Positions 2,011-10,530 of a DNA stretch of 10,530 nucleotides are shown in pieces. How positions within the stretch are numbered: position 1 is the first letter of the stretch; the number at the start of each line of letters is the position of its first letter. The notes under the pieces were generated by a model. It was given only the letters and a program-made list of their open reading frames with translations. It did not search any database and had not been told where the DNA came from. The stretch spans positions 1 to 10,530 of the forward strand of contig NZ_JAYKGW010000203.1 of assembly GCF_035285525.1 (NCBI RefSeq), written 5' to 3'. Position numbers and translations under genes: made by a program. The stretch is from Okeania sp. Its GTDB lineage: Bacteria > Cyanobacteriota > Cyanobacteriia > Cyanobacteriales > Microcoleaceae.

Positions 2011-3195
2011 ATGAGCAAAATCAGGTTTTTGATTATCACTTTAATCAGCTTTTTAACTGTTGTATTGCCGACTATACTAAACAAAACTTTCTCTATTTTT
2101 CTCTGTGGTTTACTGAGTTTTAATTCAGTGGGATGTTATGCAAACTTTAAGGATAATTCTGCCCAGGCAACTTTATCTCCCACTAATACTGAAATAACTA
2201 AAGTATCAATCACAATCGGACAAATACCCAGAGCCAGAAAACCAAATATTAATTTGGATTTGCAACAGGCACTACCACAGGATTTTTTGATTACTACTCA
2301 AATGCCTTTTAGTTCTGGTAAAAGAGAAATTTATCTCATTTCTCCCTCAACCAAAGCTCAACAAATTTATACAGTTAATTTACCTAATGCCAGGTTTCAA
2401 TTATATGGAATTAAATTTCAAAATATACCTGTTATTGATGAGAGTAAATTAACCAAAAGAAATCGCCTAATTCTTAATAGAATTAAGCCTGAAAGTCTCA
2501 ATGATTTTCAAGTCGCATTTGAAAACAATAAATTATCAAAAATTGTTCTAGCTAACGGCAATCAAGGAGAATTTACTGACACTCAAGCTATTATTAAATC
2601 AGCTAATGGTCAAATAATAGAAACTATTGATTTTTCCCAGGTAAATCGAACTGAAGAAACTTTAATTGCTACTACTAAGTCGATGTTATTAACATCATCT
2701 AACTGCAATCAAAATGTTAGTTCAAAATTAGATAATATAGCCGACTTTGTTGGAGTTCAGGGAAATAAACTAGCCTCTAGTGAAAATCAAATTACTCGAA
2801 ATGTCGGATTAGCTTTAGCTGCTACTTCTGCGGCCTTAAAAAATAATATTAATTCTAGACAATCCCTACCTATTGCTAGCTGTGAACGAGCTGTTCAATG
2901 TAATGAAAAGCGGGTAAGTGGAGCTAGTGAAATGAGAAGCGATTTATTTGAAATTCCTAGAGGAGCTAATCCTAAAGTTGCTTTAGAATACGATTTTTTT
3001 GACATTCCCGACACTATTGAACTGTATTTAGATGGTAAAACAATCTATTCTGATGGTCCTAAATCAGAACGACATCAAAGAACATTAGATTTACCAAATA
3101 ATGCAGAATATGTTGGGGTGCGCTTGATTGGAAATCTAGACCCAAAAACTCGATGGTGGTATGTAATTTCTTGTTCCGAAAGTGCAATAGAATAA
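2011..3195 (+). CDS. Hypothetical exported or membrane-anchored protein (394 aa), family not recognised
   Basis: Long ORF with an ATG and AAGG about 8 nt upstream. Hydrophobic N-terminus (MSKIRFLIITLISFLTVVLPTIL...FLCGLLSFNSVGC). Polar N/Q/S/T-rich body. Cys-containing C-terminal segment ...EYDFFDIPDTIELYLDGKTIYSDG...WWYVISC. Confidence 0.65.
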   Translation: MSKIRFLIITLISFLTVVLPTILNKTFSIFLCGLLSFNSVGCYANFKDNSAQATLSPTNTEITKVSITIGQIPRARKPNINLDLQQALPQDFLITTQMPFSSGKREIYLISPSTKAQQIYTVNLPNARFQLYGIKFQNIPVIDESKLTKRNRLILNRIKPESLNDFQVAFENNKLSKIVLANGNQGEFTDTQAIIKSANGQIIETIDFSQVNRTEETLIATTKSMLLTSSNCNQNVSSKLDNIADFVGVQGNKLASSENQITRNVGLALAATSAALKNNINSRQSLPIASCERAVQCNEKRVSGASEMRSDLFEIPRGANPKVALEYDFFDIPDTIELYLDGKTIYSDGPKSERHQRTLDLPNNAEYVGVRLIGNLDPKTRWWYVISCSESAIE

Positions 3196-3872: not shown

Positions 3873-5393
3873 ATGAAAAGAAAACATAAATTATTTATCT
3901 TAAGTCTACTTTTAGTCTTACTTCTGAAAATTGGTTTCTCATGGCAAATAGCGATCGCTAAACCCACACCCACCAACCAACAACCAGAAAAAATTAGCCA
4001 AACAGAAGCCACTCCCACTGAAACCGAAACCGAAACCGAAACTAAAGTAGATACTGAAGCAGAAGACTCCTACGAAACCCTGCTCGAAGCAGATTTTCTG
4101 TATCAGCAAGGAGAAAGAGAAGCAGCAGAAGAACTTTACCGAAAAGTCAAAACACCCTTTGCATCTCATCAAAACACCATGTTTTCAGACCCCATAAACA
4201 ACACCGAAAATTTACCAACCGAGATTCAAACCGAGTGGGAAGAAGCAAAAAATGCTGCTGACAAAAATGATAATCTGGAGATGTTGCAAGAGTTTGTAGC
4301 ACAACATCCAGAATTTGTTCCTGGTCATTTATTCTTAGCTAAAACATTACAAAAGAACGAAAAGAAAAAAGAAGCTCTGCAAGTTCTAGAAAAAGCCTCC
4401 AGTATTTTTCCCGACTCAGTAGAAATAGTTGAAGCTCATGTCAAAGCACTGAGAAAAGAAAAAGACTATTTAGAAGCATCCATCGCAGCTCGTCAATTTG
4501 TGTTAGTTAATCCAGAGCATCCAGAAGCAGCAAGGTTTCTAGAAATTGCTGACGAGAACTTTGAGAAATTCCAGAAGAAAATTAAGGGGCAAATGGTAGG
4601 CAAAGGTATCTTGGGAACAGCTATCCGAGTTGGTGGTTGCGCTGTACTCGGTAATTGTAATGTATTGGGAACTGTTCTGGGAGAAGGCATTAAAATGGGT
4701 AGTTTGCTGCTCCAAGGAGAATCAGGTTTAGGCAGTCGAGTAGCAGAAGCATATAAGAAACAACTCTCACTGGTGGAAGATGAGGAAGTAGTCGAATATG
4801 TGAGTAAAATTGGTAATTCTATTGCGGAGTTAATGGGTAGAGATGATTTTGAATACGAATTTTATGTAGTGAAAGATGATTCCCTCAATGCTTTTGCTTT
4901 ACCTGGGGGTAAAGTATTTGTGAATACTGGATCGATTCTTAATACTAATTCTGAAGCAGAGTTAGCAGGTTTACTTACCCATGAAGTTGCTCATGCAGTT
5001 CTTTCCCACGGTTTTCAAAGAGTTGTGACTACTAACTTGTACGATAGTGCAGGGGGTGTTGTTCGTGATGCGTTAAAAACTAACATTCCTATTAGCAGTA
5101 TTGCTACAAGTTTGATTAGTTTACGTTACAGTCGGAGCAATGAGCGTCAAGCGGATATTGTTGGTACTCGTGTTTTAGCTACTGCTGGTTATGCTGCTGA
5201 TGGTTTAAGAAATTTTATGGCAACTCTGGATGAAAAAAAAGGTGGTAAACGTTCTTTGGGTTTTCTTTCCAGTCACCCCCAGTCAGATGATCGGGTTGAC
5301 TATCTGGAACAATTAATTGAATATAATGGTTACAATCGTTATGCTTTTGAAGGAGTGGAGAAACATAGAGGGATTCAGGAAAAGTTAATGTAA
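3873..5393 (+). CDS. M48-family zinc metallopeptidase (506 aa) with a signal peptide and an N-terminal helical, TPR-like region
   Basis: AAGGAG at 3858-3863 precedes the ATG. Signal-like MKRKHKLFILSLLLVLLLKIGFSWQIAIA. Family motifs present: NAFALPGGKVFVNTG, HEVAH (4980-4994) and the downstream SRSNERQADIVGTRVLATAGY. Confidence 0.9.
   Translation: MKRKHKLFILSLLLVLLLKIGFSWQIAIAKPTPTNQQPEKISQTEATPTETETETETKVDTEAEDSYETLLEADFLYQQGEREAAEELYRKVKTPFASHQNTMFSDPINNTENLPTEIQTEWEEAKNAADKNDNLEMLQEFVAQHPEFVPGHLFLAKTLQKNEKKKEALQVLEKASSIFPDSVEIVEAHVKALRKEKDYLEASIAARQFVLVNPEHPEAARFLEIADENFEKFQKKIKGQMVGKGILGTAIRVGGCAVLGNCNVLGTVLGEGIKMGSLLLQGESGLGSRVAEAYKKQLSLVEDEEVVEYVSKIGNSIAELMGRDDFEYEFYVVKDDSLNAFALPGGKVFVNTGSILNTNSEAELAGLLTHEVAHAVLSHGFQRVVTTNLYDSAGGVVRDALKTNIPISSIATSLISLRYSRSNERQADIVGTRVLATAGYAADGLRNFMATLDEKKGGKRSLGFLSSHPQSDDRVDYLEQLIEYNGYNRYAFEGVEKHRGIQEKLM
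4020..4043 (+). repeat. Hexanucleotide repeat (GAAACC)x3 plus GAAACT inside the M48 gene, encoding (ET)4
   Basis: gaaaccgaaaccgaaaccgaaact, read directly; in frame. Confidence 0.85.
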
Positions 5394-5608: not shown

Positions 5609-5646
5609 ACTTACGCAGACTCTAGATATAGTGCCTTTGTGTAAGT
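5609..5646 (+). repeat. Short hairpin repeat, family copy R4
   Basis: ACTTACGCAG (5609-5618) pairs with TTGTGTAAGT (5637-5646) through two G.U positions. It is followed by AGTCCTG (5645-5651) ... CAGGACT (5673-5679). Confidence 0.75.
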
Positions 5647-5763: not shown

Positions 5764-5907
5764 ATCACAGTTAAAGCAATGTGCGCACTTAATATTTACA
5801 AATCACAGGAACTGTCCAATAACTAAAAGTCTTATTTTATTAAGCAATTTATTCCTTCTGTTCCCTGCGCACAGCGCTATATTATTTGGGAAATCAATCA
5901 AATAATT

Positions 5908-7905
5908 ATGTCACGTTACAAAGTTGGTGGAAACTTAGCAGCAAATCATCCTACTTATGTAGTCAGAAAACAAGATACAGAATTATATGAAAAACTCTTA
6001 GCTGGAGAATATTGTTATATATTCAATGCTCGTCAAATGGGTAAATCTAGTTTGCGAGTGAGCGTGATGAAAAAATTACGTTCCCAAGGTTGTCAATGTG
6101 CAGTAATAGATATGAGTAGATTAGGTAATTCTTCTGCGCCAGAAAAATATTGGTATCGTCAATTTATGAAAAAGATATTTGGGGAATTGAACGATTTTTC
6201 GGTTCAAGAAAAGTCTTGGTGTAATGGATTTATCAAAGAATTATTTAGTGAATTTAATTTAAACTATAGTATCAATTCTCAAGAATGGATAGAAAATCAT
6301 CAAAGTTGGATAAGTACCCAAATTTTAGTTCAATTTATTGAAGAAATTTTATTCATTAATTTTCCAGCACCGCAAAAAATATATATTTTTCTCGATGAAA
6401 TTGATGCCCTGGTAAATTTACCTTTTAAGAATCAGTTTTTTGCCTTTATTCGCTCTTGTTATAATTTCCGAGCCGAAGCTGAAAATTCTGATTATCATCG
6501 GTTAGTTTTTGGTTTTTTTGGAGTAGTAACCCCAGAAGATTTAATTAAAGATGGCAAACATACTCCTTTTAATATTGGTCATGGTATTGAATTAACAGAG
6601 TTAACTTTTGAAGAGGGTAAAAAAAGTTTAATGGAAGGCTTAAAAGAAGTAGTTGATGAACCAGAAACTGTTTTAGAGAAAGTTTTTGATTGGAGTGGCG
6701 GTCAACCTTTTTTAACTCAGAAAATTTGTCAAATTATTCTTGATTATACTGATACTACTCAACCAGATATTGATAGTTTGGTAAAAGAACATATTTTGAC
6801 AGATTGGGAAGATAAAGATCGGCCTACTCATTTAAAATATATTCGCCATTATTTACTCAGTGAAACTTTACTTGCGCCTCAGTTACTGAGGCTATATAAA
6901 AAAATTTTATTGCCAGGAGAAATTAAAGTTAATGATAGTTCTATACAAATGGGATTGAGGCGATCGGGTATAGTTATTAAAAAACGAGATAAGTTGGTTG
7001 TTTTTAATAAAATATATCAGACAATTTTTAATCTAGATTGGGTAGAAGAGCAGTTAGCAAATTTAAGAAATCAAGGTCAAAAAATCTGGCCTCCTAATTG
7101 GAAACAAGTTGCTAGTTTAGTAATTTTCCTGGGAATTAGTTGGCAGTTATCGGTGCAGAAGTTTTTGTTAGATAGGCGGGTGTTTTTACAAGCTATTTAT
7201 CGTCAATATACTCGTCAAAATTCAACAAATAATATTCCCCCTGTGTTGTTAGTGCAAATAGATGATGAATCAATTATTAAAGCAGAAATTGCCCAACCTA
7301 ATCCTATGAGAAGGGATTATTTAGCTAGTTTAGTTAAACGAGTTTCTGAGTTAGAAACCAAGGTCATTGGAATTAATTATTTATTAGATCGCTCTCATAA
7401 AAGAAGGGATGGAGGAGTAGGCGATCGCCTCTTAGCAAAAGCTATTCCAACAGCAGTAAAAAAACAACAATTGATTGTTCTGGTTAACCGCAGCGGCTAT
7501 ACTATAATTCCTGAAATTGCTAATTTGAATTTGATTTTACAAGGAAATGTGAAAGTGATAAGTAATGGAAGATATTTAGCACTCCCCAATCTTGAATCTT
7601 CCGATGTAAAAGATTTTACTTTTTCCTCTATGTTGTTATTAGCTTATCACTTAAATTATGAGAAAAAGTCTGATAGTTTACCTCAAGTAAACTTACAAAA
7701 TCAGGTTAATTTTTCAGTTAATTATCAAAAATATTTTTCTGGAGTTTATCTTTGGAAATCCCTCACTTTTTTTTCCTATCGGTTGAAACAAAGGTGGCTG
7801 CTTCCAATTGTAGACTTTTCTATTAGTTATGACCAAGTATATGACTGTATTCATGCTTGGCGACTTTTGGAATCTCATAATTCTTTAGCTTCCAAAAAAA
7901 ACTAG
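5908..7905 (+). CDS. AAA-like (STAND-type) P-loop NTPase, one TM helix, and the N-terminal part of a CHASE2 domain. The reading frame is cut short by a frameshift in an A8 run.
   Basis: The N-terminus YKVGGNLAANHPTYVVRKQDTELYEKLLAGEYCYIFNARQMGKSSLRV matches the cyanobacterial 'AAA-like domain' family as I remember it. Walker A is GKS (6040-6048) and Walker B is IYIFLDEID (6379-6405). TM helix VASLVIFLGISWQL (~7109-7150). CHASE2-type start PPVLLVQIDDESI...RRDYLASLVKRVSELETKVIGINYLLDR. Confidence 0.85.
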   Translation: MSRYKVGGNLAANHPTYVVRKQDTELYEKLLAGEYCYIFNARQMGKSSLRVSVMKKLRSQGCQCAVIDMSRLGNSSAPEKYWYRQFMKKIFGELNDFSVQEKSWCNGFIKELFSEFNLNYSINSQEWIENHQSWISTQILVQFIEEILFINFPAPQKIYIFLDEIDALVNLPFKNQFFAFIRSCYNFRAEAENSDYHRLVFGFFGVVTPEDLIKDGKHTPFNIGHGIELTELTFEEGKKSLMEGLKEVVDEPETVLEKVFDWSGGQPFLTQKICQIILDYTDTTQPDIDSLVKEHILTDWEDKDRPTHLKYIRHYLLSETLLAPQLLRLYKKILLPGEIKVNDSSIQMGLRRSGIVIKKRDKLVVFNKIYQTIFNLDWVEEQLANLRNQGQKIWPPNWKQVASLVIFLGISWQLSVQKFLLDRRVFLQAIYRQYTRQNSTNNIPPVLLVQIDDESIIKAEIAQPNPMRRDYLASLVKRVSELETKVIGINYLLDRSHKRRDGGVGDRLLAKAIPTAVKKQQLIVLVNRSGYTIIPEIANLNLILQGNVKVISNGRYLALPNLESSDVKDFTFSSMLLLAYHLNYEKKSDSLPQVNLQNQVNFSVNYQKYFSGVYLWKSLTFFSYRLKQRWLLPIVDFSISYDQVYDCIHAWRLLESHNSLASKKN

Positions 7906-8023
7906 AAAATGTGAAGTAACTCAAATAATTGAAGATCAAGTTAAACAACAGATAGTAATAATAGTTCCTGGTGGATATGACAATGCAGGGCTAAAATACG
8001 GGGATGATAATTATACTCCACTG

Positions 8024-8371
8024 ATGGCTTTTAGTTATTGGAATAATGACAAAATTTTAACAGGAGGTGAAATTCATGCCTATATGCTACATCATCTTCT
8101 AATTAATAGAATAGTGATTCCTATACCTGATTTCTGGATGATTTGGGTGGGGGCTTTTTTGGGTCAAGGTGTGATTATTTTATTGCATAAATATCCAGGA
8201 AAGCGTGGTGAGTGGGTAGGGGTTTTTGTAGTTACTAATTTTGTTTATTTAATAGTTAGTTTGCAGGTTTATATTTCTGGGGTGTTTGTGTTACCTATTG
8301 TGTTGCCTTCTGTTACCTTTTGGATTTATATTCTACTGCATTATCGGATAAAAAATGATTTCCCAACTTAA
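8024..8371 (+). CDS. C-terminal part of the same CHASE2 protein in the +1 frame. This frame is open from 7889; ATG 8024 is only the first Met.
   Basis: Frame-2 translation from 7889 reads ..KKTRKCEVTQIIEDQVKQQIVIIVPGGYDNAGLKYGDDNYTPLMAFSYWNNDKILTGGEIHAYMLHHLLINRIVIPIPDFW. Three hydrophobic helices follow. This is the typical end of a CHASE2 domain. Confidence 0.8.
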   Translation: MAFSYWNNDKILTGGEIHAYMLHHLLINRIVIPIPDFWMIWVGAFLGQGVIILLHKYPGKRGEWVGVFVVTNFVYLIVSLQVYISGVFVLPIVLPSVTFWIYILLHYRIKNDFPT

Positions 8372-8441
8372 CTGTGGTATAAATCAAGTAAAATTTTCTA
8401 TCCCTAAAATATGTTTTGTTGAAAATTAAAAGGTGAAAAAT

Positions 8442-9077
8442 ATGCGTTATAAATTTTATTCATTTATATCTTTTTTTCTTCTATCAGTTTCTGGCTTACT
8501 ATGGGTGAATTATTATTCATTAATTAGTCAAGTAAATGCTCAAGTTATTGCTCAAAAGTCGCCTTCTAGCCAATACATTTTGGATCGACTCCAAGAAATA
8601 ATTTTTAATGCTAAAGAAGAACAATCCGAACCTCCAGAAACCTCTGATAAAAATACTTCTCGTGGTGATGATTTTTGTTTAATTGCACCTTGGTTATACA
8701 AATTAGAAAATTCCTCAGAGCAAATATTTGTAGAAGTTTTCCGAGAGCAACCTATCTTTATTTGGCAGAAAGATGCAGGGGCAATTTTCATACAAAATCC
8801 TGAAACTCAGGAGACAATTTGGGCAGAAGTTGTGGATTATGGAGTCAGAAAAATGGTTTATTCTGGTCAAACTTTAGAGAAGGGAAAAATTTATCATCTT
8901 TTCTTACACGAAGGCGATACAACTAGCTCTCCTTTTCCCTTTAAAATTATTAGTGGAAATCGCCGAAAAACTATTGAAGCAGAGTTGCAAAAATTGGAGA
9001 AAAAAGCTGGTGCTGCTTCTGCTGAAGAGATGGCTTTATTACGAGCTGATTATTTTCTGAAGCAAGGTTTATTATGA
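8442..9077 (+). CDS. Exported DUF928-like protein (about 211 aa from ATG 8442; the ORF track starts at GTG 8433)
   Basis: AAGGTG (8429-8434) lies 7 nt before ATG 8442. Signal peptide MRYKFYSFISFFLLSVSGLLWVNYYSLISQVNA-Q. The pattern ..SRGDDFCLIAPW...PIFIWQ...YSGQTLEKGKIYHL...LRADYFLKQGL fits my recollection of the DUF928 consensus (R-G..C..L.P, P-hF-W, L..Gk.Y, YA..G). Not verified by HMM. Confidence 0.55.
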   Translation: MRYKFYSFISFFLLSVSGLLWVNYYSLISQVNAQVIAQKSPSSQYILDRLQEIIFNAKEEQSEPPETSDKNTSRGDDFCLIAPWLYKLENSSEQIFVEVFREQPIFIWQKDAGAIFIQNPETQETIWAEVVDYGVRKMVYSGQTLEKGKIYHLFLHEGDTTSSPFPFKIISGNRRKTIEAELQKLEKKAGAASAEEMALLRADYFLKQGLL

Positions 9078-9169
9078 GATGCTTTTAATAAGATGTTATC
9101 AGTAAAAGAACCCTCTGATGAACTGAATGAAACTTTGAAAAAAATTAAGAAAGAAGAGTTTTGCCCCAC

Positions 9170-9200
9170 CAAGTAACACAAGCATCTTACTTGTTAATTT
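9170..9200 (+). terminator. Weak candidate intrinsic terminator
   Basis: CAAGTAA (9170-9176), a 10-nt loop, TTACTTG (9187-9193), then TTAATTT. The stem is short and AT-rich. Confidence 0.2.
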
Positions 9201-9291
9201 AAAGTAAAACAGACAAAATTCCTGTTAGTCTAACCCACATTCCGCAGGTCAACTTCCAAAATTAAAAATAGTGTGAAAAAAGGAGACTAAA

Positions 9292-9504
9292 ATGCAGCTA
9301 ACTAAAAATTTTCTGTTTTCAATCAGAAAACTAGGTTTTTCTGTAACTACAATTACTGGATTAGTTATTAATTTAACCACTGAAATAGCATTAGCAGGGA
9401 CTGCATGGCAAAAGCGAGAAATTACCAGGATTAACATATATATTTGCCATGCAGTAGATAATTTTTTTTGCTATTCAGACTTACGCAGGCAAACCCAGAA
9501 ATGA
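9292..9504 (+). CDS. Small 70-aa ORF with a hydrophobic N-terminus and a Cys-containing tail; unknown function
   Basis: This is the strongest RBS in the window: AGGAG at 9281-9285, 6 nt before the ATG. Translation is MQLTKNFLFSIRKLGFSVTTITGLVINLTTEIALAG...INIYICHAVDNFFCYSD... The last ~17 codons run into the dispersed repeat at 9454-9522, so the true 3' end is uncertain. Confidence 0.4.
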   Translation: MQLTKNFLFSIRKLGFSVTTITGLVINLTTEIALAGTAWQKREITRINIYICHAVDNFFCYSDLRRQTQK

Positions 9505-9522
9505 GTTTTCCGTGTAAGTCCT
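9454..9522 (+). repeat. Hairpin-family copy R6 with its upstream TAGATAA-T8 segment. Paralogous to 194-254.
   Basis: gtagataattttttttg..ACTTACGCAGGCAAACCCagaaatgagTTTTCCGTGTAAGTCCT aligns with caatagataatttttttttgcACTTACGCAGGCAAATCCagaaaccagATTTATTTGTGTAAGT. Confidence 0.8.
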
Positions 9523-9571
9523 GAGTTGGAAATCAAGTCAAACTTAACAATTCTATCAGGAGGAATTTACG

Positions 9572-10319
9572 ATGAAATATCCAACTTTTTTCAGTTACTT
9601 AACTCTGAGTTCTATCCTAACTTTAACTCCGGTTAAGTTAGGATTAGCTCAAACTCAAAATTCACTGTTAAACTATCAAAAGATTGTACAAGATCAAATC
9701 AGTCACAACTTAGGAAATCAGATAAATAGACTTTATCAACAAGGAGAGAAACAATTAAAAGCAGGTCAATTGCAGGGAGCTTTAAATAGTTATCAGCAGG
9801 CTTTAGCTATTGCTAAAAAAATGGGTAATTCCCAGTTTTTACAAGGGTTAATTTTACAAAGGATCGGAATAGTTTATGGATACCTAAGCGAGTACAAAAA
9901 AGCATTACAAAACTATGAACAAGCTGGGAAATTTTTTCAAGCAGAAGGGAAAACTAAGGATGTTGCATGGACGCTTATATACATTGGTAACGTTTTCAGA
10001 GATTTACAGAATTTTGAAGAAGCAGAAAAATTTTATCAGCAAGCTTTAGAAATTAGTAAAAAAATTGGCAGTCGAGATGTGGAAGGAGAAAGTATCAATG
10101 GTTTAGGCAGCCTCTACAATATTCAGGAGAACTAGGATTTAGCACTGAAATATTATCAACAAGCTTTGCAGCTTAACCAAGAAGAAGGCGATCGCCAAGG
10201 TGAAGGAGTAGTTATTAACAACATTGGAGTCGTTTATCGACAACAAAGTAAATACCAACAGGCGTTAGATGCTTACAAAGCAGCTTTGAAGATTGACAGA
10301 GAAATTAGTAATCGCCTTA
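9572..10319 (+). pseudogene. Exported tetratricopeptide-repeat protein, disrupted by an in-frame TAG (10133-10135) and truncated at its 3' end by an IS insertion at 10320
   Basis: AGGAGG (9560-9565) precedes the ATG. Signal-like MKYPTFFSYLTLSSILTLTPVKLGLA-QT. About 40-aa TPR units follow (..ALNSYQQALAIAKKMG.., ..ALQNYEQAGKFFQAEG.., ..AEKFYQQALEISKKIG.., ..ALKYYQQALQLNQEEGDRQGEG.., ..ALDAYKAALKIDREISNR). ORFs 9572-10135 and 10166-10348 are in the same frame. Confidence 0.85.
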
Positions 10320-10385
10320 GGCTTTGTTGCACAAAAGGTGACGTTTAGGCTATAAATAACATCAGGATCATACGAATCAGTAGAT

Positions 10386-10530
10386 ATGAGTAAGTCCAAG
10401 TCCAAGTCCAAGTCCAAGTCCAAGTCCAAGTCTAAGCCTAAGCCTCAATACAAGATCAAGAATTGGTCTGAGTATAATGCATCCTTGAAGCAACGAGGCA
10501 GCCTAACATTTTGGCTTAATCAAGAGGTAA
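10386..10530 (+). CDS. IS5-family DDE transposase, N-terminal fragment (partial at the window edge)
   Basis: MSKSKSKSKSKSKSKSKPKPQYKIKNWSEYNASLKQRGSLTFWLNQEV. The NW.EYN..L.QRGSLTFW motif is the characteristic N-terminal signature of IS5/IS903-type transposases. Confidence 0.75.
   Translation, partial: MSKSKSKSKSKSKSKSKPKPQYKIKNWSEYNASLKQRGSLTFWLNQEV
10392..10445 (+). repeat. Hexanucleotide microsatellite (AAGTCC)x6 plus AAGTCT and AAGCCT x2, encoding (KS)7(KP)2
   Basis: Read directly. In frame at the 5' end of the transposase ORF. Confidence 0.9.

Follow-up and report, generated by a model that had tools for sequence, protein, structure and literature searches.

We analysed a 10,530-bp stretch of DNA, hereafter called the window, which is the entire contig NZ_JAYKGW010000203.1 of an Okeania sp. 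assembly (GC content ~33%). Okeania is a filamentous marine cyanobacterium. All larger open reading frames (ORFs) of the window lie on the plus strand, and three genes in its right half are the subject of this study: gene A, which joins an AAA_35 P-loop NTPase to a CHASE2 domain, gene B, which encodes a small exported DUF928-like protein, and a gene for an exported protein with TPR repeats that is cut by an insertion sequence (IS). Their features are compiled in Table 1.

Table 1. Features of the AAA_35-CHASE2 region in the window (aa, amino acids; TM, transmembrane)
Feature	Positions	Strand	Remarks
Gene A, pseudogene	5908-8371	+	AAA_35 NTPase, TM helix, CHASE2 ectodomain, three TM helices; 820 aa when frameshift-corrected
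AAA_35 P-loop NTPase domain	5929-7029	+	aa 8-374; Pfam match
Walker A, GKSS	6040-6051	+	
Walker B, FLDEID	6388-6405	+	
TM helix 1	7108-7155	+	aa 401-416; hydropathy
CHASE2 extracytoplasmic domain	7135-8161	+	aa 410-751 of the corrected protein; Pfam PF05226
A8 homopolymer, then TAG	7894-7901; TAG 7903-7905	+	Frameshift of gene A
Three C-terminal TM helices	8132-8338	+	aa 742-759, 769-789 and 792-810; hydropathy
Gene B, pseudogene	8433-9176	+	Exported DUF928-like protein; signal peptide, beta-sandwich, helical bundle
SRG..C motif of gene B	8658-8678	+	
70-aa ORF, doubtful gene	9292-9504	+	No family, no homologue
Exported TPR_12 gene, pseudogene	9572-10315	+	In-frame TAG 10133-10135; 3' end removed by IS
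IS5-family element, left end	10316-10530	+	Left boundary approximate; contig ends within the element

The first ORF of gene A (5908-7905) encodes 665 aa, after which the +1 frame is free of stops up to position 8371. When the frame was corrected at the run of eight adenines, the protein aligned end to end and through the junction with an intact homologue of 833 aa (P0003) at 80% identity, which confirmed the frameshift proposed in an earlier reading of the bare sequence (the original prediction). The Pfam scores of the corrected protein were 65 bits for AAA_35 (PF14516; curated cut-off 27) and 63 bits for CHASE2 (PF05226; curated cut-off 26.3; E 4e-17, profile positions 10-250 of 257). Both Walker motifs are present and are shared without variation by 29 homologues with 34-53% identity to P0003. 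Hydropathy analysis placed one helix before the CHASE2 domain and three behind it, the layout expected of an extracytoplasmic domain. That is, the predicted anatomy of the protein was borne out. No CHAT or caspase match to the window protein was found in Pfam. On the nucleotide level, positions 5882-8335 are 86% identical to four related loci (L001 and L005-L007).

Searching the PDB with the sequence of the NTPase head gave no match. The AlphaFold model of P0003 has a predicted local distance difference test score (pLDDT) of 80-94 across most of aa 20-390, with a stretch below 50 at aa 75-98. Archaeal Orc1/Cdc6 and SSO1545 were the best PDB matches of this modelled head (E ~1e-7), followed by Avs3 (E 6e-6) and MalT (E 7e-5), and the P-loop core, helical lid and winged helix of STAND and Orc1-Cdc6 AAA+ switches such as MalT and Avs are present in the model as well. 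The head of gene A is therefore best described, at the level of a predicted fold, as a putative AAA+ switch of the Orc/Cdc6-STAND type. It had been called STAND-like, and the STAND clade is a candidate placement: Avs3 and MalT are among the matches, behind Orc1/Cdc6 and SSO1545. While STAND switches sense through a cytoplasmic repeat array, gene A has a trans-membrane CHASE2 sensor. Other proteins carry the AAA_35 head in fusion with WD40, TPR, kinase, PBP or antiporter modules. In Okeania sp. SIO3B3, a protein of 1206 aa (P0001) comprises AAA_35-AAA_35-CHASE2, a tandem duplicate of the fused-type head, which fits heads that work as dimers or oligomers.

Gene B as read is an ORF of 214 aa (8433-9077) that ends at a premature TGA (9075-9077), where its homologues of 245-256 aa have a Trp. 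Past this TGA, the frame continues for 32 further codons to a stop at 9174-9176, and an invariant Cys lies in this tail. Searches of gene B against Pfam and NCBIfam gave no match, and DUF928 was absent from the Pfam results of the window protein even at E<=10; neither this protein nor its close relatives reach the curated threshold of DUF928 (PF06051, 26 bits). An exhaustive profile search delivered a gene-B family of 580 cluster representatives. Weak Pfam matches to DUF928 were obtained for 23 of 62 sampled family members (best E 1.4e-6), and 10 of the 62 matched an Ig-like model. Comparison of the family profile with true DUF928 by hhalign gave a probability of 70.7% (E 3.8e-5) over 149 collinear columns. 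The same profile failed to find the true DUF928 protein of the paralogous locus L092, which is encoded behind an AAA_35-CHASE2 gene, in the position of gene B. Since the weak matches, the hhalign result and the equivalent position in L092 point to one superfamily, gene B appears to be a remote relative of DUF928 and not a member of the Pfam family, a classification with moderate support. The earlier label 'DUF928-like' thus holds for remote homology, but not in the sense of a direct Pfam match.

The order of motifs is common to Pfam DUF928 and gene B: a signal peptide, GG(S/T)RG..C, P.F.W, G..Y.W and a C-terminal helix with LW..A. The gene-B group differs as a sister family with its own C-terminal signature, NPS.EL....FC. 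Its full signature consists of a signal peptide, GGSRG..C.I.P, P.F.WQG, G..Y, AEEIAL.RANYF...LWSDALQE.YSV.NPS.EL and a final Cys. Two Cys residues are invariant in the family, and 72 of 86 members have a signal-like N-terminus. In the AlphaFold model of the gene-B homologue P0126 (pLDDT >90 at aa 110-245), a beta-sandwich is followed by four helices, and the GGSR motif is located in a linker with pLDDT <50. The C-terminal domain of MtxA was the best PDB match of this model (4z29, E 6e-5), followed by FN3 and Ig domains. In L001, the N-terminal part of gene B is partly duplicated; the copy (13085-13301) lies directly 5' of the full gene B and is 83% identical in nucleotides to window positions 8419-8635. 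An apparent CHASE2/DUF928-like fusion (P0269) was rejected; its partner portion retained start codon and signal peptide, and we classified it as read-through of adjacent genes.

The third gene encodes TPR_12 repeats (E 1e-17). Its internal TAG falls where the repeat consensus has a Tyr, and the frame runs on to ~10315, after which TPR similarity is lost. The transposase ORF of the IS starts at 10386; its N-terminal 48 aa lie in the window and are 67-70% identical to annotated IS5-family transposases (tblastn), in agreement with the predicted truncation of the TPR gene by an IS. An (AAGTCC)n hexanucleotide repeat (10392-10445) gives rise to the N-terminal (SK)n and (PK)n tract of this transposase. 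By sequence, the TPR fragment is closest to TPR-only proteins of ~390 aa (at most 38% identity) from unrelated and uninformative contexts, so that a CHAT domain on this gene would be hypothetical. Like gene B, the TPR gene starts with a hydrophobic, signal-like N-terminus, as judged by a hydropathy heuristic only. The 70-aa ORF between both genes has no match in Pfam or NCBIfam, homologues are absent from all 87 related loci, and its 3' end (9452-9509) is made of dispersed-repeat copies that also occur at 191-242. For these reasons it is probably not a gene. Of the four consecutive co-directional genes of the original prediction, gene A, gene B and the TPR gene consequently remain, and the signal-peptide-like N-termini hold for the latter two.

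We compared the region with related loci. L001 and L005-L007 share the order of a gene for a helix-turn-helix (HTH)-AAA_35 protein (434 aa), an AAA_35-CHASE2 gene (~831 aa), gene B and XisH/XisI. In L001 a TPR-CHAT gene (1109 aa) comes next, after XisH/XisI, and in L005-L007 a divergent extracytoplasmic function (ECF)-type sigma factor is adjacent. The N-terminus of the HTH-AAA_35 paralogue matched Sigma70_r4_2 (E 7e-8) and GerE. This LuxR/sigma-region-4 type of HTH is also found in MalT, but the paralogue carries it at its N-terminus, unlike MalT. An AAA_35 paralogue is located directly upstream in all seven related loci (L001, L005-L007 and L092-L094); in L092 it is split, and its N-terminal HTH is presumptive. 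In intact loci, the AAA_35 head is thus paired with a soluble HTH-AAA_35 paralogue that is encoded just upstream, which contradicts the earlier notion that the fused NTPase is the only cytoplasmic partner. L092 continues from its split AAA_35 gene with AAA_35-CHASE2, true DUF928 and a TPR-CHAT gene of 1048 aa. In L093 and L094, HTH-AAA_35 and AAA_35-CHASE2 are present, with neither a partner gene nor a remnant of one. L002 and L003 encode a conserved protein of 450 aa, DUF1822, CHAT-CHASE2 and gene B, followed in L002 by TPR-CHAT. In the syntenic relatives L001, L002 and L092, the large downstream TPR gene carries a C-terminal CHAT domain (PF12770), so that the large TPR gene is, in the relatives with data, an exported TPR-CHAT gene, as had been suspected. 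Toxin-antitoxin and mobile genes (MazE, PIN, HepT/MNT, XisH/XisI and IS605 OrfB) are inserted in or beside the module in L001-L004 and L088, and in L004 a DDE transposase takes the place of the CHASE2 gene.

A genome scan with a narrow gene-B alignment extended the comparison to 80 loci from many cyanobacterial orders, in which neighbouring ORFs were labelled with purpose-built profiles, with examples checked against Pfam. Pairing was counted in the 78 gene-B-family loci with enough upstream sequence. A CHASE2 gene lies directly upstream on the same strand in 67 of these; the median gap of the pairs is -8 nucleotides (nt), and 61 of the 67 overlap. This gene order is far beyond chance, and its predicted recurrence was confirmed. 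A CHAT-like N-terminal head is present on 64 of the 67 paired CHASE2 proteins. CHASE2 with a non-classical cytoplasmic domain at its N-terminus, previously taken for an exception, is common in cyanobacteria. Of 57 loci, 40 have DUF1822 and a 469-aa protein upstream; additional CHAT genes are present in 46 of 68 loci, and a small exported TPR protein is encoded downstream in 21 of 54. Signal-like N-termini were recognized on 42 of 52 long neighbouring CHAT proteins. The ~469-aa protein 5' of DUF1822 (L040 4670-6079 and 44 other loci) has no Pfam match. By eye, its C-terminus is similar to an HTH of sigma region 4; possibly this protein corresponds, in divergent form, to what Kaur et al. 2021 called an 'ECF sigma factor'. 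At a distance of 4-6 kb 3' of gene-B relatives (L008-L087), we observed exported Peptidase_S8 subtilases (15 loci), caspase-like Peptidase_C14 with DUF4384 (14 loci) and, in 8 loci each, a receiver-domain protein and an ABC exporter.

Central to the module is a membrane protein with a periplasmic CHASE2 domain and an N-terminal cytoplasmic domain. Its gene is co-transcribed with that of a small exported DUF928-like protein, and an exported TPR or TPR-CHAT protein is often encoded nearby. The usual head is CHAT/caspase-like; in the Okeania/Trichodesmium lineage and in the window it is the AAA_35 NTPase. The two halves of gene A have different nearest relatives. While aa 389-816 of the window protein share 50% identity with the CHASE2 halves of the CHAT-CHASE2 proteins of L002 and L003, in loci with gene B, aa 1-490 share 51-55% identity with the AAA_35-CHASE2 heads of L093 and L094, the CHASE2 halves of which are too divergent to be aligned with that of the window. 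Similarity to the CHAT-CHASE2 proteins of L002 and L003 starts at aa 389-399 in blastp and at nt 7113 in blastn, and TM helix 1 marks the boundary of the swap. Since the CHASE2 half matches CHAT-CHASE2 and the head matches AAA_35-CHASE2, the cassette of CHASE2 and gene B was kept while the cytoplasmic head was exchanged. A third CHASE2 type is found in L092, where it is paired with true DUF928. Judged from these sequence comparisons, the type of the partner gene tracks the type of the ectodomain and not that of the head, which is the strongest argument so far that gene B acts with CHASE2 in the periplasm.

The closest described system is that of Kaur, Iyer, Burroughs & Aravind (2021, eLife, PMC8195603). 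According to the searched text of this source, a constant EACC2 and caspase head is combined with variable C-termini including CHASE2 and STAND NTPases, the genes usually adjoin an ECF sigma factor and DUF1822, and stimulus-induced autoproteolysis is proposed to feed into the sigma factor. EACC2-caspase-CHASE2 has the same CHASE2 ectodomain, TM layout and N-terminal position of the cytoplasmic module as gene A. The two are connected by the 50% identity of the CHASE2 half to CHAT-CHASE2 proteins of sister Okeania genomes, which are followed by a DUF928-like gene and preceded by DUF1822 and a conserved 469-aa protein. In gene A, however, EACC2 and caspase are replaced by AAA_35, DUF1822 is absent, and AAA_35 loci have the HTH-AAA_35 paralogue instead. 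Neither an ECF sigma factor nor DUF1822 is encoded in the window; the sigma factor occurs in L005-L007 and DUF1822 in L002 and L003. The suspected link to caspase/CHAT conflict systems was thus substantiated, with EACC2-caspase-CHASE2 as the common form (PMC8195603). In the searched text of that paper, neither the DUF928-like partner nor the exported TPR-CHAT genes are mentioned. CHASE2/DUF928 adjacency was noted once, for Nostoc punctiforme, in a 2017 survey (PMC5587647), and a metacaspase-CHASE2 fusion in Trichodesmium was listed in a survey of 2010. Our searches of the literature found nothing on AAA_35-CHASE2 or the HTH-AAA_35 partner, nothing relevant on AAA_35/PF14516 and only passing mentions of CHASE2 together with CHAT or DUF928. 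New here are therefore an NTPase head plus HTH paralogue as a variant of a described kind, and a conserved partner that is undescribed in the literature searched.

A precedent comes from Sinorhizobium meliloti, where the CHASE2 adenylate cyclases CyaD1, CyaD2 and CyaK sense a protein signal via the outer-membrane accessory protein NsrA (PMC13001267). As in the cyanobacterial module, a CHASE2 sensor is combined with an accessory envelope protein, but the output is a C-terminal cyclase and the beta-barrel accessory is unrelated to DUF928. Regulated envelope proteolysis by RseA/RseB/DegS controls ECF sigma factors, and in the type III-E Craspase the TPR-CHAT protease Csx29 cleaves Csx30, leading to the release of RpoE. 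The cast of both systems is similar (TPR-CHAT protease, small partner, membrane transducer, ECF sigma or HTH output). We draw on them as an analogy and no more, since the module has no CRISPR component and no PDZ protease, its proteases are exported, and cleavage is proposed only.

The region is best explained as the decayed copy of a module for trans-envelope sensing, which filamentous cyanobacteria have conserved. On balance, we consider it probable that this module signals from the periplasm to the cytoplasm, by a mechanism that we infer as follows. The DUF928-like protein would bind the CHASE2 ectodomain, either as a co-receptor or as a tethered inhibitor. A periplasmic event would then alter this complex; a candidate event is that an exported CHAT protease cuts the partner at its invariant GGSR-G..C linker. 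TM helix 1 might relay the change to the cytoplasmic head, and in the AAA_35 variant, the head could switch its nucleotide-dependent association with the HTH-AAA_35 paralogue, by which transcription would be altered. A bolder version goes further: DUF928-type proteins would be the cognate periplasmic partners of a large class of CHASE2 sensors, cut by exported TPR-CHAT at the GGSR-G..C linker, in a proteolytic trans-envelope cascade with an interchangeable head that was rewired in Okeania and Trichodesmium from a caspase-like protein to a transcription-controlling Orc1/Cdc6-STAND NTPase pair. We regard this version as rather unlikely.

Several points weigh against the sensing module as formulated above. 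The contact between CHASE2 and the gene B product is proposed on indirect grounds, and a conserved motif in a linker predicted to be disordered is all that speaks for the cleavage site. The CHASE2 half of the P0003 model has a low pLDDT and is too unsure to be interpreted. AAA_35-CHASE2 proteins exist without a DUF928-like partner (L093, L094), and in the clade of the window, the CHASE2 gene and gene B do not overlap and sometimes have toxin-antitoxin genes between them. A mirror-tree correlation of distances across 59 loci did not separate ectodomain from head (partial r 0.55 versus 0.49). Finally, dN/dS (the ratio of non-synonymous to synonymous substitution rates) of gene A is 0.42-0.43 between the window and intact copies, compared to 0.39 among intact copies. 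There is no extra relaxation on the lineage of the window, so that inactivation must be recent, or else the lesions are errors.

If they were errors, the module would be intact and functional, with the missing partner and the 3' end of the TPR gene on other contigs. The window is indeed a whole 10.5-kb contig of a draft assembly with both ends in repeats, the frameshift sits in a homopolymer, and dN/dS is not elevated. Yet two of the three lesions (the frameshift of gene A, the TGA of gene B and the TAG of the TPR gene, which is also cut by the IS) are stop-creating substitutions at a conserved W and Y, which is an atypical mode of error. An independent Logan assembly of run SRR19514071, which breaks at repeats on both sides, is 100% identical over 5792-10349 and carries all three. 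Nucleotide homology to relatives starts only at 5882, 26 nt 5' of the gene A start codon, and thus the partner gene is not merely off the contig: an HTH-AAA_35 gene directly 5' of gene A is absent in the window. Moreover, the same genes are broken differently in the related assemblies L005, L006 and L092. We therefore judge an intact module highly improbable. Given the frameshift, two nonsense codons, the IS cut and the absence of the HTH-AAA_35 partner, the module is almost certainly inactive here, as a recent pseudogene cluster. The original prediction had noticed the frameshift and the IS, but missed the in-frame stops of gene B and the TPR gene. A different objection is that the genes adjoin by accident. 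The upstream M48/TPR peptidase gene and two unknown ORFs are no conserved neighbours, and the TPR fragment has no close syntenic orthologue. For the CHASE2/gene-B pair, however, the recurrence in 67 of 78 loci across many orders, usually with overlap, and the same order again in L001-L007 and L092 leave chance adjacency with next to no credibility, and we reject it; for the TPR gene of the window it is possible.

Two further explanations accept the module and differ in its role. Its main rival is a conflict or programmed-cell-death system in which CHASE2 and exported TPR-CHAT detect envelope damage or an invader, and the head triggers a suicidal or immune response. Kaur et al. 2021 grouped the common form, EACC2-caspase-CHASE2, with systems of apoptosis and immunity, CHAT, Peptidase_C14 and S8 proteases as well as toxin-antitoxin genes abound in the neighbourhoods, and the NTPase has Avs3 among its structural matches. 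In addition, the periplasmic parts evolve fast (mean pairwise distance 0.53-0.56 versus 0.41 for the head; dN/dS 0.4-0.7), and copies are repeatedly broken across genomes, as would be expected of dispensable defence genes. The AAA_35 variant, on the other hand, lacks an effector domain; its constant partner with a DNA-binding HTH, together with the ECF sigma factor adjacent in L005-L007, points to transcription, and Kaur et al. likewise proposed a final step via an ECF sigma factor. We consider this explanation somewhat unlikely. Alternatively, the DUF928-like and TPR-CHAT proteins might be cargo or clients, with the CHASE2 protein as a platform for envelope assembly or anchoring that is energised by the NTPase. 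Every partner is exported, the gene overlap suggests matched production, and an ATPase on the cytoplasmic side could supply power. But the common head is protease-like and not an ATPase, so that energy coupling is not conserved, the partners have ordinary Sec-type signal peptides, and the Orc1/Cdc6-STAND fold is that of a switch and not of a translocase. Elsewhere, CHASE2 is known only in fusion with signalling outputs, the pattern that Zhulin et al. reportedly described in 2003. A platform is thus highly improbable, and we retain the trans-envelope sensing module as the preferred explanation.

The left part of the window contains genes and repeats outside the module. An exported M48 metallopeptidase with TPR repeats is encoded at 3873-5393 on the plus strand, 514 nt 5' of gene A. 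It is BepA-like (Peptidase_M48 E 1e-26; NCBIfam BepA E 5e-31, yet far under the cut-off of that model). Upstream of it, ORF 2011-3195 encodes 394 aa with a hydrophobic N-terminus and has neither a family match nor a homologue in related loci, and ORF 245-1600 encodes a multi-TM protein of 451 aa without a family match, flanked by an inverted 30-nt pair (90% complementary) of the short dispersed repeats listed below. The M48-TPR peptidase and the unknown ORFs were rejected as module members, since their homologues occur in none of the related loci. A 42-nt unit (TCAATGCTTACTATTGTGCAATAGATAATTTTCTGATRGCKM) is present in ~5 tandem copies at the extreme start of the contig (4-213). Dispersed short repeats with the core CTTACGCAG were found at 212-242, 297-326, 1666-1695, 5610-5630 and 9476-9509; they may constitute a family of small mobile elements or elements resembling miniature inverted-repeat transposable elements. 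A 68-nt direct repeat (87% identity) occupies 1724-1791 and 9530-9597. Its second copy overlaps the start of the TPR gene, from the ribosome-binding region to codon 9. In the first, an ATG at 1766 is followed by a stop after 13 codons, which identifies it as the leftover of another copy or of a rearrangement. A stretch of 39 nt (1823-1861) is 100% identical to L002 4800-4838, an intergenic segment that adjoins the DUF1822 gene of another Okeania genome, and is probably a further dispersed repeat. A search of the window against Rfam yielded no RNA family.

CHASE2 was defined in 2003, and the signals of CHASE2 sensors have been poorly known since. The clearest case that we found is that of S. 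meliloti, in which a protein signal is relayed through an accessory envelope protein. The window itself is of lesser value in this respect, because its copy is a recent pseudogene cluster. Across cyanobacteria, however, an exported protein family nearly always adjoins, and usually overlaps, a large class of CHASE2 genes. Since the type of partner follows the ectodomain when the head is swapped, this family is a testable candidate for what CHASE2 sensors bind. Furthermore, caspase-like and STAND-like NTPase heads are interchangeable on one sensor, which bears on the evolution of death and immunity modules in multicellular bacteria.

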